Positions 125-12,868 are shown, counted from the stretch's first letter. The stretch is DNA of 12,981 nt from Thermodesulfovibrionales bacterium (GCA_963715195.1 CAVQRT010000032.1:1-12981); one strand, 5' to 3'. The notes: generated by a model not told the origin, from the letters alone. Program-made: numbers and translations.

Positions 125-1087
125 TCACTCTTTTAAAGTAGCCACTTCTTCACGTAAGATGGATGCAGACCTCAAAAGGGCTTTAAGTTCTTCAGATGAT
201 AGCTTCGCTTCCAAAATACGTTCCACACCTCTTTGGGAGATAATGCATGGAACACTCAAGCTAACATCTGATAAACCATATTCTCCTTCAAGAACAGTTG
301 AAACTGTAAGTACACTTTTTTCATTCCGAAGTATTGCGCCTACAATACGAACAAGAGCGAGACCAACTGCAAAGTATGTCGCACCTTTGTAATCGATGAT
401 GTGATAGGCAGAACTTCTCACAGACTCTTCAATTGCTCGACGTTCTGCATCCCAATTACTACACTTTCTACATATCTGGCAATATTCATCAATCGCTATC
501 CCTGCAAGGTGAGTCATAGACCAAGCTGCAAATTCACTGTCGCCATGTTCTCCAAGGATGTATGCATGAACATTGTGGACATCTATGCCACACTTTTCGC
601 TTAAACGATAGCGAAATCGTGAACTATCTAGTACTGTACCTGAACCAAAGATACGCCCTCTCGGCCAACCTGTGCGCCTATGAGCAATGTAGGTGAGAAC
701 ATCAACAGGGTTACTCACAACCACTATCACTGCTTGTGAATGCTGACCAACGATTTCATCAACAATGCTGTCGATGATTGTTTTATTCTTTTGAAGAAGA
801 TCAAGGCGTGATTTACCACTAGTCTGCATTTTAGCTCCTGCAGTAATCACGATTACAGTGGCATCTGCAAAGTCGCTGCTAGATCCTTCACGGATCTTAA
901 CGGAAGGGAAAAACGGTACCCCATGTGTCAGATCAAGCACCTGCCCTTTGACTAGCTCACGATTCATATCGGTAAGGACAATTTCATCTGATAGGCCATG
1001 TTGTGCAAGTGCATAGGCAAATGTGGACCCTACAGCACCTGCTCCAACGATAACTACTTTTCTGGCTGTCCATTGTTCATTAATCAT
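125..1087 (-). CDS. ldh: L-lactate dehydrogenase (NAD-dependent, probably the FBP-activated type)
   Basis: Rossmann motif IVGAGAVG; VVSNPVDVLT; GSGTVLDSSRFR (substrate-binding Arg); catalytic LGEHGDSE; Gln in the substrate loop six residues before the Arg of SRLDL, which indicates LDH rather than MDH; SD GAGGGGG upstream of ATG 1087. Confidence 0.93.
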   Translation of the reverse strand: MINEQWTARKVVIVGAGAVGSTFAYALAQHGLSDEIVLTDMNRELVKGQVLDLTHGVPFFPSVKIREGSSSDFADATVIVITAGAKMQTSGKSRLDLLQKNKTIIDSIVDEIVGQHSQAVIVVVSNPVDVLTYIAHRRTGWPRGRIFGSGTVLDSSRFRYRLSEKCGIDVHNVHAYILGEHGDSEFAAWSMTHLAGIAIDEYCQICRKCSNWDAERRAIEESVRSSAYHIIDYKGATYFAVGLALVRIVGAILRNEKSVLTVSTVLEGEYGLSDVSLSVPCIISQRGVERILEAKLSSEELKALLRSASILREEVATLKE

Positions 1088-1165: not shown

Positions 1166-1311
1166 CGGTTTCTCTCCCTTTATCAGACCGCGGAGATGTT
1201 AGTAGTTCTATATCGCTGAGCGTAAACCCTCCGGGCAACTCATAAGGGATATCTCTCTTGCAGGAAAGATGGTTGCCTCCGTGCCACTAATATGGGATAT
1301 TAACTGTAATC

Positions 1312-1345
1312 AAAATAAAAAGGGCGAGATGTTAAACTCGCCCTT
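1312..1345 (-). terminator. Rho-independent terminator downstream of the OmpA-domain gene
   Basis: 9-bp inverted repeat AAGGGCGAG (1320-1328) / CTCGCCCTT (1337-1345), followed on the minus strand by TTTATTTT; starts 22 nt after the stop at 1368. Confidence 0.85.
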
Positions 1346-1367
1346 GACCTGTTTATTGATAAACGCT

Positions 1368-2546
1368 TTATCGCTTCATCTTCTCAGCACTTACTCCTTC
1401 ATCTAAAATAATAATTTCCACACGGCGATTTTGCTGTCTACCAGCAGGTGTTTTGTTGCTTGCTATGGGGAACTGTTCACCGTAACCCTTTGTAGTAATC
1501 CTTTCGGCACCAATACTCCTTGTGTTTAAGAAATCCCGAACAGCATCTGCACGCTGTTGTGAAAGACCCAAATTGTAAGTTTCAGTGCCGACGCTGTCAG
1601 TAAAGCCTTCAATTAAAACATTACGCTTTGGGTACTTCTTCAAAAAATCAGCAAGGATATCCATGGAACGCACAGCGCCTGACATTAAATGAGCTTTTCC
1701 GGTTTCAAATAGTATGTCTCCTAAGGTGAGGACGATACCTTTTTCAGTTTGTTTGGCTTTTAATTCCGAAAGTTCACTTTCTATTTGTTTTCTCTGTGCT
1801 ATGGCTTCCTGTTCTTTTGTACGAGCCAGTTCTGTTTCAAGCCTTTTGGCTTCAGCTTCCTTTTTAGCTTTCTCAAGTTCCAATGTCCTCGCCTCGGCTT
1901 CCTTCTTCAAGCTTTCCGCTTCTAATGCTTTTGCCTCAGCCTCCTTCTTCAATTTTTCAGCTTCTAGTGCTTTTGCCTCGGCTTGTCCTCTTGCCTGCTG
2001 AATCTCAAGCGCTCTTGCTTCAGCTTCCTTCCTGGCCTTATCCGCTTGCTGGGCTAATGCTTGGGCTTCTCCTTTCGCTCTCTCGATCTCACGTATTTTT
2101 TCCTCGGTTTCCTTCTTTGCACGCTCGGCTTCAAGTGTCTTTGCCTCAGCTAAGCTTAGTGCCCTCTTTGTTTCAAGTTCACGAGCCTGCAATACTAACT
2201 TGTCCTTTGTTTTGATCAGCTCTTCTCTTTCCTGTTCGGCAATCTTTTTGTCTGCTTCTGCAATTGCAAGCTGGGAGATTCTCTCTGCCCGAAAGGAAAG
2301 GTAATTCATTTCCTCAACGTTTTTTGCCTGCTCGGCCATTTTCAATGCTTGTTCAGCCTCATACATAGTAACGGGAGCGTTTTCCTTTACCTCAGGATTT
2401 GCTGCAGCTTGTTCATAAGCTGCACGGGCACGGTCTAAAGCTGGATTTTCAGGTATCGTTGCACACCCTATCGCTAATAATATGACTGAAAGAAGAATTG
2501 ATATGCCGAGACTCTTTCTATGATAATTCTTTGACAGCTTTCTCAT
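1368..2546 (-). CDS. OmpA-family peptidoglycan-binding lipoprotein with an N-terminal DUF4398-like domain and a long coiled-coil stalk
   Basis: Lipobox LAIG-C; C-terminal OmpA-like domain (LGDILFETGKA, IEGFTDSVG...YNLGLSQQRA, GYGEQFPIASN...GRQQNRRVEI). Start moved to ATG 2546 because SD AGGGGG lies 8 nt upstream; ATG 2570, which overlaps the previous stop as ATGA, remains an alternative. Confidence 0.9.
   Translation of the reverse strand: MRKLSKNYHRKSLGISILLSVILLAIGCATIPENPALDRARAAYEQAAANPEVKENAPVTMYEAEQALKMAEQAKNVEEMNYLSFRAERISQLAIAEADKKIAEQEREELIKTKDKLVLQARELETKRALSLAEAKTLEAERAKKETEEKIREIERAKGEAQALAQQADKARKEAEARALEIQQARGQAEAKALEAEKLKKEAEAKALEAESLKKEAEARTLELEKAKKEAEAKRLETELARTKEQEAIAQRKQIESELSELKAKQTEKGIVLTLGDILFETGKAHLMSGAVRSMDILADFLKKYPKRNVLIEGFTDSVGTETYNLGLSQQRADAVRDFLNTRSIGAERITTKGYGEQFPIASNKTPAGRQQNRRVEIIILDEGVSAEKMKR
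1815..2150 (-). repeat. Eight tandem 14-aa (42-bp) repeats, consensus AEAKALEAEKxKKE, inside the OmpA lipoprotein
   Basis: Units read from the translation: AEAKTLEAERAKKE / TEEKIREIERAKGE / AQALAQQADKARKE / AEARALEIQQARGQ / AEAKALEAEKLKKE / AEAKALEAESLKKE / AEARTLELEKAKKE / AEAKRLETELARTK. Confidence 0.85.
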
Positions 2547-2566
2547 GGCATTTTCCCCCTCTCTTT

Positions 2567-2959
2567 TCATTGACCACGTTGTTGCGACCGCTCAATCTCT
2601 TGACGCAATGTCTCAATAGTATTGCGCAACTCTTGAGTGGTTTTCTTGGCTTCTTCCGACCGTGATTTGGCTTCAGCGAGTTTTGCATCTAACAGCGCCT
2701 CGTTTGCCAGTTGCAGAGCTTCCTCATACTCTTCTGCTTGCAGCGCTGTTCTGGCCTGACTGAGTTTGTCTGTTGCAAATTTCAGTTCGAGAGGCGCATA
2801 CACAGCAGCGTCACTCTCTTCTGCCTCCTTAATAGCCATTTGTGCATTCGAAATGTCTTCGATTGGTGCAACCTTTGCGGCACAACCAACCATAAGTAAA
2901 ATGGTCACTGCAACCAACATACTAAATACTACACGGACTCTTGCCTCCTGTGCTATCAT
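2567..2959 (-). CDS. DUF4398-domain lipoprotein
   Basis: Lipobox LMVG-C; AQMAIKEA...AAVYAPLELKFATDKLSQA...EALLDAKLAEAKS pattern typical of DUF4398; usual position directly upstream of a DUF4398-OmpA gene; SD AGGAGG. Confidence 0.85.
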   Translation of the reverse strand: MIAQEARVRVVFSMLVAVTILLMVGCAAKVAPIEDISNAQMAIKEAEESDAAVYAPLELKFATDKLSQARTALQAEEYEEALQLANEALLDAKLAEAKSRSEEAKKTTQELRNTIETLRQEIERSQQRGQ

Positions 2960-3053
2960 CTCGTCCCTCCTTTCTTTGATAGTACGATTTTAGTTCCTAA
3001 CAAAAAACTTCTCTTAACAATTTTATTTTTGCGCTTATCAACCCCCCTTGTTT

Positions 3054-3076
3054 TGAGCTCATAATGAATGAGCTCA
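3054..3076. repeat. Tandem palindromes TGAGCTCA-N7-TGAGCTCA in an intergenic region (possible hairpin or protein-binding site)
   Basis: TGAGCTCAT (3054-3062) and ATGAGCTCA (3068-3076) are inverted repeats, and each contains the self-palindromic octamer. Confidence 0.5.
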
Positions 3077-3132
3077 TCAAAATATTATAAGCTTATGGTG
3101 TTTGTTCTGTCTCCATGTGCAAAAACGAAAAG

Positions 3133-3561
3133 TTACTCAACCTTAAAAGAAACTGATTGAACTGAGTTTCCTGCAGCGTCTTTTATCTCCACCTTCCAGT
3201 TCCCGGTCTTCCCATATAAGTTCTTGTATGCGAACGTCCTCCACCTTGGGCCTTGCATAAGTGGAAGAGTAAATGTACGCATTTCCTGCCCTTCATGATA
3301 CCAGACAACGGTAGCCTCTGTGTCCTCTGAAATATTCGTGGCTTCTATGAAACAATACACCTTCTCTGTTGATGCGGGGAATGTCTCTTCAACTCCAACG
3401 GGTTCTCTGTCTTGCACATTTTCAGCAACAACCATTGTTGATATACTGAATAACTGAACTCCCTTTTCAGCTTGCTCCTGCCCTATAGCAGGAGAAGTTA
3501 TCCCGAGTGATGCAATGACAGCAAAAGATAAGATAATCACCAAAATCATCCTGTTTTTCAT
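3133..3561 (-). CDS. Exported DUF2914-domain protein
   Basis: Signal peptide; V.DREPVG...F......VYCF, VVWYHEG, PRWRTFAYK, GNWKVEIKD pattern resembling DUF2914; SD AAGGAGG. Confidence 0.8.
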   Translation of the reverse strand: MKNRMILVIILSFAVIASLGITSPAIGQEQAEKGVQLFSISTMVVAENVQDREPVGVEETFPASTEKVYCFIEATNISEDTEATVVWYHEGQEMRTFTLPLMQGPRWRTFAYKNLYGKTGNWKVEIKDAAGNSVQSVSFKVE

Positions 3562-3658
3562 TGTCTTCCTCCTTATTTTGTATTTGTTAAAATTGTCATT
3601 ATTTCAAGCATTAAACATCAATGTGGAGTTATCCCATCTACTATTGTCATTGAGCTTG

Positions 3659-5158
3659 TTACGTCTTTTTCGATTTTATCGATTTTACCCATTCTTCAAT
3701 TTCACGTGCGGCAGTTTCACGTCCTCCCAATCCAAGAGCTATTGCAGCTGCAATTGCAACTGCCCCGAACATTATTCCAAAAGCTAAGTTAATAATGTCA
3801 TTTGCCAGACCCATCTGTCTCAATGACATTGCACCCGCCAAAACAAGAATAGCAATGCGTGCTGACAGAGCTAAAAGCTTGGCTTGAGCTGTATTCGAGG
3901 TGAGGATTGCTTTTCCAACCAAATTTGCAAGAAAAAGTCCTATGGTAAAGATAATGAGTCCCAAGATGATATGTCCGGAGAGAAAGATAAACTCTGAAAT
4001 AAGAGTCGATAGTTGTTCAAACCCCAGCTGGTTAGATGCTTCCATGAATGCAAAAAGCAAAATGCCCAACAGGACTAAATACCCAACAATTGCTGATGGT
4101 GTCATCTTTCCTTCGGTAACCTCTTTGCCAATGCCTAATTTTGCGAGAATTGCATTAAAGCCAATTCCGGAGAGAAGATTTGACACTAGATTGGAAACGA
4201 GCCGACCGATTATGTACGAAAGAACCAGAATCAAGCCTGCGACAAAGATATCCGGGATTGCTGTAGTGATCATTTCGAGCATTTTACTGGCTGGTTGCGT
4301 AAGTGCATCCAATTGGAGAGCGTTGAGAGCGGCAACCAGAACAGGGATAAGAATCAGCACGTATATGATGAGACCTATAATGTTAGAGAGAGATTGTTTC
4401 CCAAGCATAGACGTTAGTCCCACACGTTCACTCAGTTTTTCAGTGCCGATGGAGTCAAGTAACTTAGTTACGATCTTCTGGATTATTCGAGCAACGAACC
4501 ATCCAGCAAGAAGAATCACGGCTGCAGTTATCAGATTAGGAAGAAAATCAAGAACCTTATTGAGCATTACTTGAACTGGACTCAGAAGTCCATATAACCC
4601 TAAGGTGCTCAATATCGCGGGAAAGAAGAGCAAAAAGACCAACCAGTAGACTGCATCTGATAAGGTCTTTGTCAGGGGGAATTTTTCCTTCTCTATTGCA
4701 GCTTTGTCCGAAAGACGTTCATCGAGTTTGGTTGCACTTAACAGTCTTCTGACCAATAGTTTCATCACTCTCGCTACCACCCACGCAATGAGAATTAACA
4801 CTACAGCCCCAATCAACTGAGGAACAAATACGAACAATCTGTTCAGAAGATTGTTGAGAGGCTCCGTGATAAGTGTAATGCCCAGTGTCTGGAAGAATGC
4901 AATTAACACAAAAAGCATGAGGATAAAGAACACACCCTTTGAGATACCTTTTTCGACATTCATAGCTTGGGCTTTTTCCTCACCAGTTATCCATTGAGCG
5001 ATGCGATTGTCTATTGTTGTGCGCTGGAGTAAACTCCGGACGACTGCTGTAATCACGAGAGCGATAAAGCATCCAACTATGAGCACTGCCACAGCACCAA
5101 CGAGTTGAGGAACGTAAGACCCCGTCAGTTGCACTATTTGTTGAACGAAAGCTTCCAT
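3659..5158 (-). CDS. CmpX-like polytopic membrane protein related to mechanosensitive channels, with five conserved TM-helix repeats
   Basis: Repeats start YVPQLVGA, FVPQLIGA, FLPNLITA, AIPDIFVA, LSGHIILG; C-terminal AIALGLGGRETAA motif as in CmpX-type proteins; highly hydrophobic; SD AAGGGGG. Confidence 0.85.
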   Translation of the reverse strand: MEAFVQQIVQLTGSYVPQLVGAVAVLIVGCFIALVITAVVRSLLQRTTIDNRIAQWITGEEKAQAMNVEKGISKGVFFILMLFVLIAFFQTLGITLITEPLNNLLNRLFVFVPQLIGAVVLILIAWVVARVMKLLVRRLLSATKLDERLSDKAAIEKEKFPLTKTLSDAVYWLVFLLFFPAILSTLGLYGLLSPVQVMLNKVLDFLPNLITAAVILLAGWFVARIIQKIVTKLLDSIGTEKLSERVGLTSMLGKQSLSNIIGLIIYVLILIPVLVAALNALQLDALTQPASKMLEMITTAIPDIFVAGLILVLSYIIGRLVSNLVSNLLSGIGFNAILAKLGIGKEVTEGKMTPSAIVGYLVLLGILLFAFMEASNQLGFEQLSTLISEFIFLSGHIILGLIIFTIGLFLANLVGKAILTSNTAQAKLLALSARIAILVLAGAMSLRQMGLANDIINLAFGIMFGAVAIAAAIALGLGGRETAAREIEEWVKSIKSKKT

Positions 5159-5348
5159 ACTATCCCCCTTTCTTTGCCGATGATGCTTGTGTATCCCCTA
5201 GAAGCACCATACGTTAATATGTCTTCTGTTAATTACTGCAAATAACTCACAGCCCGATACTGTGATGATCGATGCGGAGTATTTACAGGCAGCACCTCTT
5301 TCAAAGTTTGCATTTTCTTCATCTTTTGAAACCCTGGCCCATTGTACA

Positions 5349-5822
5349 TTATGCAATTTGGAACTTAGTAAGTGAGGCAAGAACGTTCCCCTTATCGATA
5401 TCTGGAACAATTTTTAACTCAAGCACTCTCACACCATGGAGGTCAACAGCATAATCCTCAATTTCACGGAGAGTTTCAGGTGGGCTAAATGTATACTGTT
5501 GGCGTACAATTTCCTGGTAAGACTTTCCTTCGTTTGCTGAGCAGCGAAGGACAAATTCATGCGTGCGTTTTTGTGTTTCTTCATCAAACTGTAGACGGAT
5601 GCGTCGTATATTCTGTGGTTCATCAAAAAGAATGCGGATTGTTTGCTTCCCGGGTTGAGATGCTTTCCAGCCCGGACTATCTCCAAAAGTTAGTGCTGAT
5701 TCGATTGGGTACGCTGGATCTTCAGAGGTGATTTCGACCTGTGCAAGGTGCTTTAAATCTAACCATTGTTGATCAGCAGGAGGGATATCATGAGAACCTT
5801 GGGTAATAATTCTTTTCCGCAT
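5349..5822 (-). CDS. Hypothetical cytoplasmic protein with a probable galactose-binding-like (discoidin/APC10-type) beta-sandwich
   Basis: TSED..YPIESAL...GWKAS.PGKQTIRILFDEPQ.I..I.L pattern. ATG 5822 chosen over TTG 5825 because SD AAGGAG lies 6 nt upstream. Confidence 0.65.
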   Translation of the reverse strand: MRKRIITQGSHDIPPADQQWLDLKHLAQVEITSEDPAYPIESALTFGDSPGWKASQPGKQTIRILFDEPQNIRRIRLQFDEETQKRTHEFVLRCSANEGKSYQEIVRQQYTFSPPETLREIEDYAVDLHGVRVLELKIVPDIDKGNVLASLTKFQIA

Positions 5823-5860
5823 CAATATCTCCTTTGATTTCTCTATGGCCTATAGTTACA

Positions 5861-5896
5861 GAGCCTGCAGTATGATTCAAATATTACTACAGGCTC
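5861..5896 (-). repeat. Intergenic stem-loop GAGCCTG...CAGGCTC (copy 1)
   Basis: 12-bp stem with one G-U pair in the minus-strand RNA, GAGCCUGUAGUA / UACUGCAGGCUC; no U-tract directly after it. Confidence 0.65.
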
Positions 5897-5919
5897 CTCT
5901 GATAACGCAGTTCTTACGG

Positions 5920-6468
5920 TTATTTTTTGAATGGTGTTTTCAATATATCTACGGAACCATCAATGACTCCCTTAAGGGCATCTTTTACTGCATTTCCTGC
6001 ACCGCTTCCAATTTTTTCAGCTGCTTCAATTGCCCCTTCCGCAGTCGCTTTTGTTGCAGCAGTTACATCGCCGCCAACTTCCTTGACTCCCTGGACTGCG
6101 CCCCTTACTGCATTATAGGCTACCTCGACGACGCCAGTTCCGATTTCATTTGCCCCTGCAACGGTACCCATTACCGCATTCTTTGCCGCACCGACTACAT
6201 CGGTGGTGGTCTCTGAGGCAGCCTTCACCACACCTCGGACTGTACTAGATACTGCATCAGATGTTGCTACCCCTATCTCCTTTGTACCTCTTAATGTCCC
6301 TATAATGGCATCTTTCGCAATGGAGGCCACTTCGCCCACGACATCCTTGACCCCTCGAAGGGCACCAATGATAACATCTTTTACGGTATTTTCCAGTTCA
6401 ACTCCGATCTCTTTCGTACCCCTCAACGTTGTAATTATCGTGTTCTTCAACGGTTCAATTATGTTCAT
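5920..6468 (-). CDS. Hypothetical protein built from eight tandem 22-aa amphipathic repeats
   Basis: Gap-free 22-residue periodicity over 175 aa (last unit 21 aa); rich in Gly/Ala/Val/Thr/Lys; no signal peptide; SD AAAGGAG 7 nt before ATG 6468. Confidence 0.85.
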   Translation of the reverse strand: MNIIEPLKNTIITTLRGTKEIGVELENTVKDVIIGALRGVKDVVGEVASIAKDAIIGTLRGTKEIGVATSDAVSSTVRGVVKAASETTTDVVGAAKNAVMGTVAGANEIGTGVVEVAYNAVRGAVQGVKEVGGDVTAATKATAEGAIEAAEKIGSGAGNAVKDALKGVIDGSVDILKTPFKK

Positions 6469-6507
6469 CACAATTCTCCTTTCTTATGGTTTATGGAAAA
6501 GGAGGGT

Positions 6508-6534
6508 GGAGCCTGTGTTGAGATAACAGGCTCC
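6508..6534 (-). repeat. Intergenic stem-loop GGAGCCTGT...ACAGGCTCC (copy 2)
   Basis: Perfect 9-bp inverted repeat, 6508-6516 / 6526-6534, with a 9-nt loop. Confidence 0.65.
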
Positions 6535-6598
6535 TTGTACGCAAGTTTCTGGCATGACTTGCGATCCCAACGTCTAAAACAGGTCTATGGTTATGTTC

Positions 6599-7147
6599 TT
6601 ACCACAGAAAACCTAAACCTACTGTGACCACATGATTGCCATGACTGGTGTCAGAAACATCTCCAAGATCAAAATTGTCAAAGAACCATTCATAGCGGTA
6701 CCGAGTTAGGACAAAGGTCTTATCATTCAAATACGTTTTGAAGCCTATACTTGGGCCAGCTGCTCCAGTTGTATTGTTCTCGTTGTAAATTGCTCCAACA
6801 AATGCACCGAGGAATGGCTGGAACGAGTCATTCATGGCTAATCCGAGAAAATGGTAGGTTACGAAGGGTATAGTCGAAGCACTCCAGGTATCATCTGCAC
6901 CGTCGACGATATTGTAGTTTAATGTCTGTGCTATACCAATTTCCCAGGCCCTTGTCAGATAGTACCCGTATCCAACGTCGAGGGTTGCTGTACCGACATC
7001 GGTACCTTGTGACTTGAAGAAGCCACCTGAAAGTTGAATCTCGTTGTCTCCAACAGATTGCGCACTATAACTATTCACGGTAAAGCAGGCAATAAGGAGA
7101 CATATGCCTATTATTACGGACAGCCTTTTTGAAAAACCCTTTTTCAT
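6599..7147 (-). CDS. Small outer-membrane beta-barrel protein (probably 8-stranded)
   Basis: Signal peptide; alternating beta-strand patterns (LDVGYGYYL, FQPFLGAFVG, LTRYRYEWF); C-terminal VTVGLGFLW ending in an aromatic residue (BAM signal); SD GAGGAG. Confidence 0.8.
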   Translation of the reverse strand: MKKGFSKRLSVIIGICLLIACFTVNSYSAQSVGDNEIQLSGGFFKSQGTDVGTATLDVGYGYYLTRAWEIGIAQTLNYNIVDGADDTWSASTIPFVTYHFLGLAMNDSFQPFLGAFVGAIYNENNTTGAAGPSIGFKTYLNDKTFVLTRYRYEWFFDNFDLGDVSDTSHGNHVVTVGLGFLW

Positions 7148-7169
7148 TCTTTATTCTCCTCTCTTAAAA

Positions 7170-7904
7170 TTATTTCTTCTCAGGTTTTGGAGCATATTTC
7201 ATTAATGTATCATGAAGCACTTTGACACTGTCAGGCACTGTTTCTACAGCAAACAATATCTTCCGCGCATCAACATCTTTGCCATATATTTTGGTATTCG
7301 CCGTACTGTTATAGGTGATGGTTGAGCCTTCAAGGTTTAAACCGGCAAAGACCCCTTTGCTTCGGGCATAGCTGATTATCGAAGATTTCAGGAGGACATC
7401 GGTTCCAACAGCTGCATCACGACCCACTGGGCCAGCTGTAACACCGATATCTCCACCTAATGTAACTTTTGACTTGAGTATTCCATCAATTCCTTTTTGA
7501 TTCATGACAAGTAAAATGACATCAGCTGACTTAGCACCGATTTGTAATCCCCAGCTTACTCCGGTAATTTTGAAGAATGCGGGTGCACCCCACTCGCCGG
7601 TTTCCTTATCACGGCAGCTTACCAGCCCATCGCCACGCTTTGCCCCAACAATAAATCCCGCTTTGAGGACTGACGGGAACACAGCAACACATTGTGATTT
7701 CTGCAATAGATTGTTCGGAATTCGTTTGTCGAAATCCTGAGTCATTTGGGTCTCCAGCACCTTCGCTGCTTTTGCAGCCCACTCGGCTTCTCCTATTGTT
7801 TCTGTTGCCGGTTTTTCATCTGTCGCTATTGCTGTACCGGTGTAACCAGTAGTGAGAATAAAGAGAAAGCAGAACAAAATTACGAACGTTTTTTTAGAGA
7901 TCAT
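7170..7904 (-). CDS. Exported lipid-binding SYLF (Ysc84-like, DUF500) domain protein
   Basis: IP..LL....CVAVFPSVLKAGFIVGAKRGDG, W.APAF....VSWGLQIGA, LGGD..V.AGPVGR and SYARSKGVFAGLNLEG motifs; N-terminal signal peptide; SD AAGGAGG. Confidence 0.92.
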   Translation of the reverse strand: MISKKTFVILFCFLFILTTGYTGTAIATDEKPATETIGEAEWAAKAAKVLETQMTQDFDKRIPNNLLQKSQCVAVFPSVLKAGFIVGAKRGDGLVSCRDKETGEWGAPAFFKITGVSWGLQIGAKSADVILLVMNQKGIDGILKSKVTLGGDIGVTAGPVGRDAAVGTDVLLKSSIISYARSKGVFAGLNLEGSTITYNSTANTKIYGKDVDARKILFAVETVPDSVKVLHDTLMKYAPKPEKK

Positions 7905-8190
7905 ACCTTGCCTCCTTTTTTGATTGGTTTCGGGATCCCCTCATTTCGAGGTTATCACACATTTTTTTGGATTGCAAATTTGAAAGAAATACAGCATGTT
8001 TTCAAGGAAATCTTTCTTCCATAAGCAAGCTATCCAAGATCAAGTTTCGAAAACAAGAAAAAGCAGCATAGTACTAAATCATTTATCCCCCCTTTCCTTC
8101 GATTTGGTATTTAATGAATACCTGCGTAGCAAGTATTCGTAAATAAAGGAAAATAAAGCTTTTAAATAGATATTTCCGAGCTTACTATTA

Positions 8191-8221
8191 TTTAGACAAC
8201 CGAGGATATATTTCCGTCACA
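8191..8221 (-). promoter_or_regulatory. Putative ECF-sigma promoter for the SYLF-to-OmpA gene run: -35 TGTGAC (8221-8216), -10 GTCTAA (8197-8192)
   Basis: Matches 11616-11646 at 23 of 31 positions, with identical end boxes and the same 18-nt spacing between the hexamers; points toward the downstream minus-strand genes. Confidence 0.75.
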
Positions 8222-8371
8222 TTAATTTTTGAATTCATTCAAATAAATAAGTTGGCAGGCAAACCTATAAATCAATGAGGGGGAAAAGAGGTCTTATATA
8301 TGAAGTCGAGAGAAATTATAAATATGAAATCCTTTGATCAAATCTAATGATAGGTTTTCGGGACAAGGAAT

Positions 8372-9226
8372 CTAACCTTCTTTAGATTTTGCTGCCATTG
8401 AGCCTTCCTTAATGATCGTTTCATTCGGGATATATACTTCCTCTCCTTGATCTGTTTTGAGTACGACAGAAATAGGGGTTATTTTCGTAATCTTCCCCTT
8501 TTTCCCAGCAAGTGTTACCTCATCTCCTACGCTGAAAAGTTGATTGATATAGTATCTCGCAAGGATGTTTGACACAATAGACCTGCTACCAAGGCCAATC
8601 GAAAGAACAACTACCAATACAACTCCAGCAATAATTATTGTTATATTGGTCATAAAAATAGTCATTTCTAATCCAAGCTCATTGAGGGCTATCAATACTC
8701 CAAAAGCTACTATAATAATTTCCAGAGAGGAGCTTACGAGCCATGCATATCCTATGTTAAGATTGGATAAAGCTGATGCAGAGATATCCTTAATATATTT
8801 TGCAACAACAAGCGTGATAACCAGTACGATAAAAGCTCCAAGTACATGGGGCAGATAGAGAATAAATTTGTTGAGTGTCTCCAAAACCACTCTAATTCCT
8901 AGTATTTCAGCCGCAGACACTATAAAGACCATTAAAACGATGTAATACACGAGAGCAGCCATAATGTCATCAAGCCCCTTTTCAATCCCAACCTTTTTCA
9001 TGATTTCATTAAACTTAACCTTTTCACCTAAAGCAGCAAGTCCGAATATTTTTAACACTTTTTTCCCGAGCTCTCTGAAAATCGTTGCCACAATTAATCC
9101 AATGAGCATAACGAGTATTGCACCAAAAATATTTGGCACATACTCGCCAAGTTTTCTAAATAGGCTTTCAAAAAAAGTTAATACAACCTCACTCCATTCC
9201 TTGAAATAATTCTGAAGCCAGTCCAT
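8372..9226 (-). CDS. MscS-family / CmpX-like mechanosensitive ion channel protein
   Basis: Two TM-helix repeats (YVPNIFGA, YLPHVLGA); pore-helix-like LSIGLGSRSIVSNILA; MscS beta-domain VGDEV...GKITKI......LKT..GEEVYIPN; SD AAGGAGG. Confidence 0.88.
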   Translation of the reverse strand: MDWLQNYFKEWSEVVLTFFESLFRKLGEYVPNIFGAILVMLIGLIVATIFRELGKKVLKIFGLAALGEKVKFNEIMKKVGIEKGLDDIMAALVYYIVLMVFIVSAAEILGIRVVLETLNKFILYLPHVLGAFIVLVITLVVAKYIKDISASALSNLNIGYAWLVSSSLEIIIVAFGVLIALNELGLEMTIFMTNITIIIAGVVLVVVLSIGLGSRSIVSNILARYYINQLFSVGDEVTLAGKKGKITKITPISVVLKTDQGEEVYIPNETIIKEGSMAAKSKEG

Positions 9227-9237
9227 ATTAGACCTCC

Positions 9238-9420
9238 TTAATCAATTTTATTGTCATCCATTAAAATGCAAGGTATTGATAGGCTGAAAACTGCAAGCTC
9301 CTTTACGATCATCAGAAAATAGACCATCTGCATTAGTTTTTGTTTTGCTGTAATATCCGGCTCGGGAATTTTAATCATATCCAATACCTTCTGAAATATT
9401 ATTTTCTCTTCATCGTTCAT
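9238..9420 (-). CDS. 60-aa protein coupled to the ECF sigma gene (candidate anti-sigma or accessory factor)
   Basis: ATGA overlap with the sigma stop (9417-9420); its own SD GAGGGG; its stop TAA is fused to the SD of the channel gene; hydrophobic C-terminal half. Confidence 0.7.
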   Translation of the reverse strand: MNDEEKIIFQKVLDMIKIPEPDITAKQKLMQMVYFLMIVKELAVFSLSIPCILMDDNKID

Positions 9421-9935
9421 AGATTAAACCCCTCTCTAAGGTTTTTCATTAGTCTTGAAAGTCTCATTTTAACAGCACTAATGCCGATATCTAGTCTTTC
9501 TGCAATCTCTTGATAAGTGAATTCGTCCATATATTTCATCATCAAAAGAGTTCTGTCTTCAATTGATAATCTTGAGAGTATTTTTTTTAGTTCTGTAGAG
9601 GTTTCTTTTCCATTGTGATTAGGAATGTCCCTTTCCGTATTATTAATAGACAGTTCCGTTTTTTTCTTTACTTGATTGAGACAGTGATTTGTTGTGATTC
9701 TATAGAGCCATGTGGGGAAGGAAGATTTTTTTTGAAAGTTATTAATACTGAAAAAGACTTTTACCCATACATCATGCATTAAGTCCTTTGCTTCTTCAAC
9801 ATTAAGACAAAAAAAATAGCATTGTCTTAATACTTTTGAGGAATATCTATCATATAAACTCTCAAAAGCATCTGTATCTCCTTGGTTAATTAATTCAATT
9901 AGAGCGCTATCATCATATTGAGAGTATTTATTCAT
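9417..9935 (-). CDS. ECF-family (sigma-70 group 4) RNA polymerase sigma factor
   Basis: Region 2: GDTDAFESLYDRY...EEAKDLMHDVWVKV...SSFPTWLYRITTNHCLN. Region 4: LSIEDRTLLMMKY....TYQEIAERLDIGISAVKMRLSR. Start placed at ATG 9935 (172 aa), because the longer ORF overlaps the upstream gene; no SD visible at 9935. Confidence 0.93.
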   Translation of the reverse strand: MNKYSQYDDSALIELINQGDTDAFESLYDRYSSKVLRQCYFFCLNVEEAKDLMHDVWVKVFFSINNFQKKSSFPTWLYRITTNHCLNQVKKKTELSINNTERDIPNHNGKETSTELKKILSRLSIEDRTLLMMKYMDEFTYQEIAERLDIGISAVKMRLSRLMKNLREGFNL

Positions 9936-9963
9936 GTATAATTGCGACAATAGAGTATATTTA

Positions 9964-10494
9964 TTATTGAGTCGCCTCAATAGTAATCTTTTCAGGTTCA
10001 TAAACCATGAACAACATACCAAGCTTTTTGTTTAATCCCATTATGGGAGAGAGAATTAAAATATTGCCATTCTGATCATCCATAATTTCGATTTCGTCTT
10101 TCTCAAGCAGCTCAACTGGATACAGAGACGAAAAAGCAACTCCCTCAAGCTTCTTATCCGTCGCTACAGCTACCGTCCCATCAGATTTGACAACAAGAAT
10201 CTGTTTTATTTGGGGTTCTTTTACGAATTGGTTGAGATACTCATTGATCTGTTCGTAATTTTCCCTAAGCATCTCTTTCCTAATAGCCCAGACAAATGTA
10301 GTCGTGGTAAGACGGAGAAAGTAACGCGTCTTTTCTGTCATAACTTGTTGAGATTTCTCAATTATCTGTATCTGCTTTGCTTCCATTCGTTCCTGAACAT
10401 TCTTAACAGCATTAATCTTCCAGATATACATAATAAAAACTAAGACTACCAATATACCGATAACATATACATTTTTCTTTCCGCTTTGCTTCAT
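9964..10494 (-). CDS. Hypothetical single-pass membrane protein with an extracytoplasmic, possibly Cache/PDC-like domain
   Basis: Basic N-terminus, then the TM segment VYVIGILVVLVFIMYIW; long helix followed by QILVVKSDGTVAVATD and a terminal beta-hairpin ILILSPIMGLNKKLGMLFMVY. ATG 10494 chosen because SD AGGAGG lies 6 nt upstream. Confidence 0.7.
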   Translation of the reverse strand: MKQSGKKNVYVIGILVVLVFIMYIWKINAVKNVQERMEAKQIQIIEKSQQVMTEKTRYFLRLTTTTFVWAIRKEMLRENYEQINEYLNQFVKEPQIKQILVVKSDGTVAVATDKKLEGVAFSSLYPVELLEKDEIEIMDDQNGNILILSPIMGLNKKLGMLFMVYEPEKITIEATQ

Positions 10495-10507
10495 AATCAT
10501 CCTCCTG

Positions 10508-11437
10508 CTACTTACCCATGGTAGCATTAATTATTTCTTGCAGCCTTTCGGGAGATAGTCTACTACCTGTGCCCCGTGGAGATCCTCCGATTGTGTCACT
10601 ACCATCCCACCTATTACTATCAGTAATGACATCAGATTCCTCTTCATTGAGTCTCTCGTATAGCTTTTGAAGACTAAATGGTGTCCATACAGACCTTCGC
10701 CCTAAAGTGTAAACAAATGATCCATCTGCATTTTCTGCCACTAACGTAGCGAAGGCAGTGATTCCATCATTATACATAGCCATTCTTGAAGCGGGTCCCG
10801 TCTCCTTAGTAAAAGTCCAGTCAACTCCTCCCCCAATTATCTCATAATTTTCCTTAAGAGAAATCTCACCGCTTTCATCAAGAAAATACCGGTCAATTCT
10901 CTCTTCGACAGATTTAATAATCGCTCTCATTTCTGTTTCTTCCATCTGCGCTACTTTACCATCAAAACGTGCCTTATAATAAGGCTGAAAAATCCAAGCC
11001 ATTTTTTTTCGCATTGAAATATCGCCAAAAGGATACGCCCCGGCTGTACTATCCAGTCTGTCTTCGCAATATACGAGCCGAATGATCCGCGCGTCTGAAT
11101 ATTTTCTTACGCGGTCATTATTCTTCAGTAACCACCATGCGAGACACGTATCCTCATCCGGGTCGTTCACATAAATATGTGCTTCTGAAACCCCATTTTT
11201 TCTGAAGGTATCAAATAATCCCAGCTTGATTTCTATGTGAACTTGTTCAGAAGTAGAACGTGTTGCTAATCTATCAGTCCTGGAATGATGATCAAAATTA
11301 GCATAGGGACCTTTGGGATCTCTCTTTGTGGTTGCATTAACAAATCCGTCCAATGCAATAGAATATGCCGGTTTCTTTTTCTTAAAATCAGACCAACTGT
11401 AGACTTTTCGGGGTTCTATATGTAAATCAATTGACAT
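10508..11437 (-). CDS. Hypothetical protein, possible DHH/MYG1-like metal-dependent phosphoesterase
   Basis: 309-aa ORF with IALDG, NFDHH, VNDPDED, DRLD and C-terminal W.GS..IGGSPR motifs. The ORF is convincing; the function is inferred. Confidence 0.6.
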   Translation of the reverse strand: MSIDLHIEPRKVYSWSDFKKKKPAYSIALDGFVNATTKRDPKGPYANFDHHSRTDRLATRSTSEQVHIEIKLGLFDTFRKNGVSEAHIYVNDPDEDTCLAWWLLKNNDRVRKYSDARIIRLVYCEDRLDSTAGAYPFGDISMRKKMAWIFQPYYKARFDGKVAQMEETEMRAIIKSVEERIDRYFLDESGEISLKENYEIIGGGVDWTFTKETGPASRMAMYNDGITAFATLVAENADGSFVYTLGRRSVWTPFSLQKLYERLNEEESDVITDSNRWDGSDTIGGSPRGTGSRLSPERLQEIINATMGK

Positions 11438-11615
11438 GAGAAATAATCATCTTCAACATATTAATTCCGTTCTTCTTCGAGAACTTGACGAGCATGTTTA
11501 AGCTTCTAGAGCATTCGTCACCGAAATGCTAATGAAGAATTACCCTTTCACAGTTTGTACGGCCTGATTGTTTAAGCATTTCCAAGGACAAAAGAGATTT
11601 ACACGATAATACTCT

Positions 11616-11646
11616 TTTAGACAAATAGAAATATGTTTTCGTCACA
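11616..11646 (-). promoter_or_regulatory. Putative autoregulatory ECF-sigma promoter of the sigma operon: -35 TGTGAC (11646-11641), -10 GTCTAA (11622-11617)
   Basis: Second copy of the bipartite motif, about 180 nt upstream of the first gene of the operon that contains the ECF sigma. Confidence 0.75.
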
Positions 11647-11851: not shown

Positions 11852-12868
11852 ATGCTTAATAGGTTTCAGAATGGCTTGATGTTTGGGTTTATGTTCTTAT
11901 TTTCTTTCGTTTTGGTTCGAGAGTCTCTGGCTGATCAGGTCATTCTTTTCAACGGGGATTCTCTTAGCGGAACGGTCGAAAAAGTCGCAGATGGTAAACT
12001 GACCCTGAAGACTGATTATTCAGGGCCGATCGACATTGATATAACAAAAATAAAGAAAATCTCCACAGTCGCTCCTGTGGAAGTTCATTTGCACAGCGGC
12101 GAGGTACTGAAAGGGCAACTCAGGTCAATTGAGGACGGTCAGGTCGTCATTGAGAGGAGTGGCGAGCGAGAAGCAACCTCTATTGACTGGGAAAAGGTCG
12201 CATCTATCAATCCTCCACCCACCAAGTGGACAGGAAGCATCACAGTCGGAGGAAATACCCAGACAGGAAATACCCACAGGAACGGTGCTTCTTTTATCTT
12301 TGATGCTTCAAGAAAAACAGAGACAGACAGATTTAGCCTAGGATATCAGTTCAACTATGTTCATGAGGACACTGAGGTCACAGCGAGGAATCACTATGGT
12401 TATCTAAAATACGATTATTTTTTCACAAAGCAATTATATGGGTATCTCGGCATGGAATTACTGAGCGACACTTTCCGAGATGTTAGACTGAGGATTGCCG
12501 TTGGCCCTGGTGTCGGGTATCAAGTTTGGGATGACGCAATCAAATTCCTCTCTGTCGAAACTGGATTATCCTATGTGAATGAAACCCATAAGGTAGGAGC
12601 GGATGTTGATTTTCTGACTGCTCGACTTGGTGCGGATTTCAGATACAAAATCACCAAGCTCATCAGTTTTACTAACAAGGTTGTTCTTTATCCGCGCCTT
12701 GATCATATCGGTCGGTACCTTCTCCGTAATGAAGCTGCTCTGGTCGCTCCTGTCGGCTCAGGTTGGGCTATGAGGCTTGCTAATATTCTTGAGCGCGATA
12801 GTAATCCATCGGCCGGAATAAAAAAGAATGATTTGCAATGGATCTTGGGCTTACAGTATTCCTTTTAA
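11852..12868 (+). CDS. DUF481 (YdiY-like, 'salt-induced') outer-membrane beta-barrel protein with an N-terminal extension
   Basis: Signal peptide ending SLA-D; W.GSITVGGNTQTGNT, KYDYFF...LYGY, D.FRDV.LR...GPGVGYQ, LSVETGLSYVNE motifs; C-terminal LGLQYSF; SD AAGGAG. Confidence 0.88.
   Translation: MLNRFQNGLMFGFMFLFSFVLVRESLADQVILFNGDSLSGTVEKVADGKLTLKTDYSGPIDIDITKIKKISTVAPVEVHLHSGEVLKGQLRSIEDGQVVIERSGEREATSIDWEKVASINPPPTKWTGSITVGGNTQTGNTHRNGASFIFDASRKTETDRFSLGYQFNYVHEDTEVTARNHYGYLKYDYFFTKQLYGYLGMELLSDTFRDVRLRIAVGPGVGYQVWDDAIKFLSVETGLSYVNETHKVGADVDFLTARLGADFRYKITKLISFTNKVVLYPRLDHIGRYLLRNEAALVAPVGSGWAMRLANILERDSNPSAGIKKNDLQWILGLQYSF

Follow-up and report, generated by a model that had tools for sequence, protein, structure and literature searches.

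A conserved TGTGAC-N18-GTCTAA dyad as the predicted target promoter of a SigX-like ECF sigma factor and its sigma-orf60-cmpX trio

A contig of a Thermodesulfovibrionales bacterium raises the question whether the target promoter of an extracytoplasmic function (ECF) sigma factor can be recognized from the DNA around its own gene. The stretch analyzed here, referred to as the window, is 12,981 nucleotides (nt) long (GCA_963715195.1 CAVQRT010000032.1:1-12981) and constitutes the entire contig C32 of its source assembly (G000; 2,813,983 bases, 36 contigs). Two 31-mers in it, P1 and P2 (coordinates in Table 1), are identical at 23/31 positions, and both read TGTGACG-N16-TGTCTAA on the minus strand. 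Each lies between genes and is directed at a minus-strand run of open reading frames (ORFs), five in number for P1 and eight for P2; the five-gene run headed by P1, orf309-orf177-sigma-orf60-cmpX, encodes the ECF sigma. An earlier note on this DNA had described this arrangement, all of which we could confirm, and had proposed that this sigma uses the dyad as an ECF-type -35/-10 promoter. A scan of the complete assembly, also suggested there, returned P1 and P2 as the sole exact matches to TGTGACG-N16-TGTCTAA. Based on the comparative analysis described below, P1 and P2 are very probably functional promoters of the SigX-like window sigma.

Taken by itself, the window is weak evidence, with a dyad that is marginally beyond chance. 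When the intergenic DNA (2,135 bases) was subjected to dinucleotide shuffling, a 7+9 dyad common to two intergenic segments, equal to the one observed, was found in 8/150 cases and a 7+7 dyad in 39/150. The former count is what speaks for a chance match, for duplicated AT-rich intergenic DNA or for a site of a different host sigma. It is other genomes that settle the question. In f32, a distantly related family within the same phylum, the orf60 gene is present in 21/115 genomes, and exact TGTGAC-N18-GTCTAA matches were found in 28/115, comprising 21/21 genomes with orf60 and 7/94 without it. The same holds within single genera, where genomes with and without the sigma-orf60-cmpX trio carried the motif in 12/12 versus 3/38, 3/3 versus 1/35 and 5/5 versus 0/2 cases. 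In a sample of 401 genomes of the phylum, a 13-base pattern was matched in 12 (5/5 with the sigma, 7/396 without it; a reversed-pattern control matched in 21/401), and the seven genomes with the pattern and no sigma had no module genes near the site. Further, we enumerated spaced word pairs blindly in the flanks of five f32 genomes, leaving out the window. GTGAC-N18-GTCTAA was the sole dyad present in all five, no such dyad arose in 20 shuffles, and the flanks themselves could not be aligned, one congeneric pair excepted. A weight matrix was then built from 33 f32 sites (35 were found, two of which lay within long ORFs and were dropped). Applied to G000, this f32-only matrix ranked P2 (29.3 bits) and P1 (27.4 bits) first and second, followed by a match at 14.7 bits, and at matrix positions outside the selection the two window sites were among the highest-scoring 0.18% and 0.42% of the background. 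The motif accompanies the trio across sigmas of 44-57% identity, and the flanks of P1 and P2 do not align with each other. Blind enumeration and f32 co-occurrence largely refute the reading as chance, duplication or a foreign site, which we consider extremely improbable.

Two patterns did not extend the set of sites. A third candidate in G000 (C14:17736), found with a 4-site matrix, scored below 10 bits with the 33-site matrix and was dropped. The loose pattern GTGAC-N18-GTCT, tried for distal targets, occurred near control level in three larger genomes and slightly above it in two smaller ones, and therefore cannot define such targets.

The dyad also has the features expected of a promoter. 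Within 1 kb after cmpX, a site on the same strand was present in 18/21 f32 genomes with the trio and one on the opposite strand in 0/21; P2 is the window's version of this positionally conserved site. A pyrimidine-purine (YR) step lies 7 nt beyond the -10 box in 24/33 orthologous sites, and because of this fixed offset transcription starts are predicted near 8185 and 11610, which fits the starts proposed previously. The motif can be written as TGTGAC(G), an A/T tract and TTGTCTAA, with N18 between the hexamers. Its bipartite -35/-10 layout, the 18 nt between -31C and -12G and the fixed strand, all features of sequence, share their geometry with the pan-ECF consensus T-36 G T A A C-31 ... C-13 G T C T A A-7 given in Table S1 of PMC7776599, which the motif matches at 5/6 positions of the -35 and 6/7 of the -10 element. 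An A/T tract after the -35 element, as found in the motif sites, has been described for Bacillus ECF promoters (PMC5758882).

The dyad could also be regarded as an imperfect inverted repeat (GAC-N18-GTC) and thus as the operator of a homodimeric transcription factor, given that its half-sites TGTGAC and TTAGAC (the reverse complement of GTCTAA) agree at 4/6 bases. We consider this very unlikely. The two halves are invariantly different over the 33 sites, orientation after cmpX is strict, a start-like YR step follows at fixed offset, spacing and bases match the ECF consensus, and the loci contain no other conserved regulator gene. A CRP-type site was rejected as well, since inspection by eye revealed no second TCACA half at 6 nt.

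The sigma factors themselves are consistent with the promoter reading. Residues at RpoE positions 80, 84, 168, 171, 172, 175 and 176 are identical in the window sigma and in 21/21 f32 sigmas, with Lys at 171 and Asn at 84. According to Dataset S3 of PMC7776599, Lys171 selects -31C (0.98). At position 84, Asn shows the highest tolerance of TG at -13/-12 (0.19; others <=0.075), CG being preferred (0.40). The only other ECF sigma detected in G000 carries Asp at 84 and Gln at 171 and hence differs at specificity positions, which argues against P1 and P2 being sites of that factor. Matches to sigma70-like promoters occur in the window at chance level (24 versus 27.2 in shuffles), and an Rfam scan of the window gave 0 matches. 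Contigs from one metatranscriptome run (word share 0.05) yielded pieces over 19/30 window bins and none over 8228-10392; being contigs, these pieces give neither starts nor strand.

Table 1. Predicted features of the window, by position.
Feature	Position	Strand	Remarks
Intrinsic terminator-like hairpin	1320..1345	-	closes left cluster; 9-bp stem + T run
DUF4398 + coiled-coil + OmpA peptidoglycan-binding protein	1368..2570	-	PF14346, PF00691; identical protein on C7
DUF4398 lipoprotein-like protein	2567..2959	-	PF14346; identical protein on C7
DUF2914 exported protein	3133..3561	-	PF11141; two paralogs on C7
Long multi-pass Msc-helix protein, 499 amino acids (aa)	3659..5158	-	PF05552 x4, NF033912 above cut-off; recurrent target
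F5/8 type C (galactose-binding-like) protein	5349..5825	-	PF00754; paralogs on C7, C21
Repeat protein, ~182-183 aa, Ala/Gly/Val/Thr-rich	5920..6468	-	no family; recurrent target
Small outer-membrane beta-barrel	6599..7147	-	PF13505 under cut-off; 23-nt gap from SYLF
SYLF/Ysc84-domain exported protein	7170..7904	-	PF04366, NF049970; first gene after P2; same place in L003
ECF promoter P2 (predicted)	8191..8221	-	-35 TGTGAC 8221-8216; -10 GTCTAA 8197-8192; start ~8185
CmpX-like membrane protein	8372..9226	-	PF05552, PF00924; MscS conserved transmembrane helix x2 + beta domain
orf60, 60-aa ORF, candidate anti-sigma	9238..9420	-	overlaps sigma stop (ATGA)
ECF sigma factor, 172 aa, SigX/ECF102-like	9417..9935	-	Sigma70_r2 + r4_2; ATG at 9935
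orf177, ~177 aa, one N-terminal hydrophobic segment (hydropathy)	9964..10497	-	start 10497 inferred from upstream AGGAGG
orf309, 309-aa soluble protein	10508..11437	-	no Pfam family; passenger between P1 and sigma
ECF promoter P1 (predicted)	11616..11646	-	-35 TGTGAC 11646-11641; -10 GTCTAA 11622-11617; start ~11610

The core device would be the trio of sigma, 60-residue protein and CmpX-like MscS-helix protein. Sigma, orf60 and cmpX follow each other in that order in 21/21 f32 loci, where the cmpX orthologs are 54-61% identical. The window sigma consists of sigma2 and sigma4 domains only (PF04542 and PF08281, with TIGR02937 above cut-off). Among specific NCBIfam models its top match is PRK09640 (SigX) at 103.1 bits, under a cut-off of 194, with SigW next at 97.4 bits. 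In 14 sigma relatives PRK09640 was the top model in 10, second in 3 and absent in 1, with small margins and scores of at most 120 bits, and its cut-off was passed in 0/401 phylum genomes. In a tree of window and f32 sigmas, built with no named SigX reference as a member, the window sigma falls into one supported clade (100/99) with 21 f32 sigmas, to which it is 44-57% identical. The orf60 product has no significant match in Pfam or NCBIfam, and its model, which is helical with one hydrophobic segment (predicted local distance difference test, pLDDT, 75), has no match in the PDB. Homologs of orf60 fall into 75 clusters whose only taxon names are Nitrospirales, Nitrospirota and Nitrospira, and these names point to Nitrospirota as the phylum concerned.

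Based on this arrangement, the translationally coupled orf60 product may keep the sigma silent at the membrane or close to it, and the CmpX-like protein probably acts as a sensor of tension or osmotic change. Under membrane or osmotic stress, the freed sigma would transcribe from the site after cmpX into local membrane or envelope genes, most commonly those for another Msc-type protein, for the repeat protein or for an Asp23-like protein. In G000, the second site P1 would also drive the sigma operon, through the two-gene passenger cassette orf309-orf177. Two loci show altered versions of the trio. In G426 (C6:1624981-1625150) stops interrupt orf60 while sigma, cmpX and site are retained; if real, this broken orf60 is a natural candidate for a constitutive switch. 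In the metagenome locus L003 (273-740) the sigma ortholog apparently lacks its first 11-14 codons, and unrelated coding sequence is joined upstream, a 5' end that appears to be due to recombination or misassembly.

Outside f32 the trio is rare. No window sigma was found in 40 relatives of G000, and close sigmas (E below 1e-55) occurred in 5/401 phylum genomes, every one in f32. A scan of GTDB contigs with the single window sigma gave one locus, which is unrelated, and plasmid searches gave two Bacteroidota sigmas, neither with an adjacent CmpX. Metagenomes yielded three true sigma orthologs among the best 80 of 121 loci. One of these loci, L005 (sigma 65%), has a site directly before the sigma. 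L003 has one after cmpX, in the position of P2, with 87% identity there, and hence is not independent.

We next consider how far the regulon extends. The earlier note had argued that the sigma autoregulates and that all 13 genes, transcribed from two promoters, make up a self-contained envelope-stress module, a possibility that we regard as doubtful. In its favor, all 13 ORFs are co-oriented behind P1 and P2, the sole strong terminator-like element lies at 1345-1320, the absence of any further G000 site above 14.7 bits implies a local regulon, and L003 retains cmpX, site, SYLF gene and barrel gene in this order. As for autoregulation, P1 before the window operon, the two f32 genomes with a site upstream of the sigma and L005 would fit it locally. 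It is not the rule, the conserved site being the one after cmpX. The motif expected near orthologous sigma operons was recovered blind in 5/5 flanks, and it lies upstream of the sigma in only 2/21. In 4/21 f32 genomes a site before the sigma faces away from it, toward a divergent gene. The 13 genes did not emerge as a conserved unit when gene recurrence was counted over 22 fetched loci, each up to 20 kb. Of the ten non-core window genes only those for the long Msc protein (7/22) and the repeat protein (6/22) recur, while the other eight (SYLF, barrel, F5/8, DUF2914, DUF4398, OmpA, orf309 and orf177) had no match at E<=1e-8. Paralogs of left-cluster genes on contigs C7, C21 and C35 have no site above 3.4 bits. 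The left cluster also has internal gaps of up to 173-190 nt, and hairpins lie within the 130- and 97-nt gaps. The gene content marks the 13-gene set as a grouping particular to this locus, built around the trio core.

We infer the extent of a P2 transcript over the eight left-cluster genes from their layout: it would cover at least the SYLF and beta-barrel genes and plausibly reach the long Msc gene, and the DUF4398-OmpA pair may be partly independent of P2. This DUF4398-OmpA block (1233-3082) is 99.8% identical to C7 over 1,850 bases, with no site on C7, and the homology ends at 3082-3090, beside a weak sigma70-like match (10/12, at 3113-3084) upstream of the DUF4398 gene. The lipoprotein-like gene may have its own promoter, though such matches are no commoner in the window than in shuffles. 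In G296, G106, G260, G461 and G465 the nearest long ORF behind a site is the long Msc gene, and the repeat-protein gene lies directly behind one in G342, G478, G467 and G426. Other first genes behind sites encode an Asp23-like protein (seven genomes by sequence, Pfam-confirmed for one), an EipA-like protein, response regulators and CNNM.

Several observations weigh against P1 and P2 being promoters of this sigma within such a device. The f32 genomes are kin, 12/21 coming from one genus, and the counts overstate independence. In 19/21 f32 genomes the 600 nt before the sigma contain no site on its strand, and 3/21 have no site within 1 kb after cmpX. Met172 shows no clear -34T preference in Dataset S3 of PMC7776599 (A 0.32, T 0.31). 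The motif lies near the generic ECF consensus, which makes cross-talk possible, and the case for orf60 as a candidate CfrX-like anti-sigma is one of position and size. In addition, the module is found in no other genome of the class of G000 (orf60 in 1/251 genomes, G000 itself), C32 ranks with the three contigs of G000 whose composition is most atypical, and contamination of the bin is 6.57%. For these last three reasons the host assignment of C32 is uncertain. The 99.8% identity of the DUF4398-OmpA block nevertheless suggests that C32 and C7 come from one genome or population.

The remaining genes and elements of the window can be summarized as follows. The two genes between P1 and the sigma look like an independent cassette. 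In G007, a member of the same family as G000, orf309 lies beside a 71% ortholog of orf177, separate from any sigma module and with no site above 8.3 bits. orf177 has no significant Pfam match. In the Atlas, orf309 falls into unnamed clusters, with DUF6687 (score 0.93) as a lead only; it has an 84% paralog on C21 and no relatives in viral contigs or PDB sequences, and its fold model from a 2-sequence alignment reached a pLDDT of 33. Genes adjoining orf309-orf177 (L221, G007:C16) and the trio (L088, G361; L104, G296) are presumably trehalose-glucan genes of treS/glgE type, the names glgB, treS and glgE being our recognition of the sequences, and they hint at an osmotic or desiccation stress neighborhood.

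Behind P2, the leader to the SYLF gene is about 280 nt long (7905-8190) and contains a strong Shine-Dalgarno sequence and, behind it, an ORF of two codons, an arrangement that L003 has as well; a small RNA or the remnant of a small gene could lie in this leader. The 9-base sequence CGGAAATAT occurs twice as a direct repeat (minus strand, 8170-8178 and 8209-8217), which overlaps the P2 -35 region and the early transcript, and L003 has a version with one mismatch. The gene order around the beta-barrel is kept in L003, and paralogs of the barrel are found on C21 and C35. Longer homologs of the repeat protein exist in G342, G106, G478 and G467, and its gene is flanked on both sides (6469-6598 and 5823-5919) by hairpins with a common GGAGCCTGT stem arm, perhaps processing or stabilizing elements. 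Rearranged paralogs of most left-cluster genes, orf309 and L-lactate dehydrogenase occupy C7:1-8500, C21:10100-17250 and C35:28125-28676 of G000, regions that contain neither the sigma nor the motif. At the window's edges, a DUF481 outer-membrane barrel gene (11852-12868, plus strand) is divergent and has the P1 intergenic region in common, and an L-lactate dehydrogenase gene (125-1087, minus strand) follows the terminator; both are without the motif.

In a wider sense, the window and f32 clade supplies a promoter sharply defined by 33 natural sites, a core of three genes and a candidate anti-sigma that is conserved. Four parts would hence be enough to reconstruct the SigX-type signaling model in E. 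coli and put it to the test. P1 and P2 offer a ready test sequence for a relative of SigX, a factor whose target is reported as poorly defined. Where autoregulation is lacking, ECF motifs are readable from a site downstream of the sigma operon. More tentatively, TGTGAC-N17/18-GTCTAA might be the target promoter throughout the SigX/ECF102 lineage and the trio a minimal mobile mechanosensing switch with a new 60-aa anti-sigma family, though we would sooner bet against this than for it. The lineage-wide motif would then have escaped searches that depended on autoregulation, given that the conserved site lies downstream of cmpX, and the switch would recruit local osmotic or general-stress genes (extra Msc proteins, Asp23, repeat protein). 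A locus that fits is L215 (G298:C55), whose distant SigX-like sigma, 31% identical, has a CmpX and no orf60. On its minus strand, at 9030 and 10748, the same boxes recur 17 nt apart, as TGTGAC-N17-GTCATA before the sigma and TGTGAC-N17-GTCTAA after cmpX. The surprise is limited in that this kind of device is familiar and the motif lies near the generic ECF consensus.

In conclusion, the type of system is already known, and the one it most closely resembles is SigX-CfrX-CmpX (OprF) of P. aeruginosa, group ECF102, to which the window sigma likely belongs. The literature search, in which the SigX logo (PMC4362757) and Datasets S1-S2 of PMC7776599 stayed outside the comparison, returned no report of the motif or of a Nitrospira system. 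ECF groups with similar boxes are ECF288 (TGTCACA / TGTCTAAT), ECF278s1 (GTGAC / GTATA), ECF118s1 (TGTGAC / GAAAACC) and ECF281 (GGAACTT / GTCTAA), each having one box, or nearly both, in common with the motif; in the portion of the supplement text of PMC7826278 covered here no group combines TGTGAC with GTCTAA. As described there, ECF288 has a Cys-rich C-terminal extension and a DUF2461 gene at +1, and the other three have membrane anti-sigmas, whereas the window sigma ends right after sigma4 and is followed at +1 by orf60, which has no Pfam match. SigX of Pseudomonas is reported to control cfrX-cmpX and oprF (PMC7826278, PMC8999054, PMC7641640) and is presented as the only studied ECF with proposed mechanosensing control (PMC8999054), with an anti-sigma described as only postulated (PMC8871633) and a promoter consensus called "not precisely defined" (PMC7641640). 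The window sigma differs from the SigX equivalog in scoring below the PRK09640 cut-off, and the Pseudomonas order cfrX-cmpX-sigX-oprF differs from sigma-orf60-cmpX. OprF-type, CorA and aldolase genes, which neighbor SigX, were not among the 15 window proteins scanned, and the window's OmpA protein is of the DUF4398 coiled-coil type without the OprF barrel. orf60 is a candidate counterpart of CfrX by position and size. PMC7826278 places ECF102 in Bacteroidetes and Gammaproteobacteria only, with a conserved channel and promoter motifs "not conserved", whereas the trio motif is sharply conserved, mainly after cmpX. Flavobacterial SigX homologs, from a different phylum, are described as having a small local regulon with proposed horizontal transfer (10.1101/2020.06.23.168245), and Todor et al. 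predict that Flavobacterium SigX regulates nearby cmpX and oprF homologs (10.1101/2020.06.23.168245, PMC7776599); the motif predicted for it may or may not equal that of the trio. What the window shares with Pseudomonas SigX is the best specific family model of its sigma, by a small margin over SigW, a small soluble ORF and a CmpX-like MscS-helix gene adjoining that sigma and an OmpA-domain gene in the cluster, and what it shares with ECF102, together with 21/21 f32 loci, is a PF05552/PF00924 gene two places downstream of the sigma.

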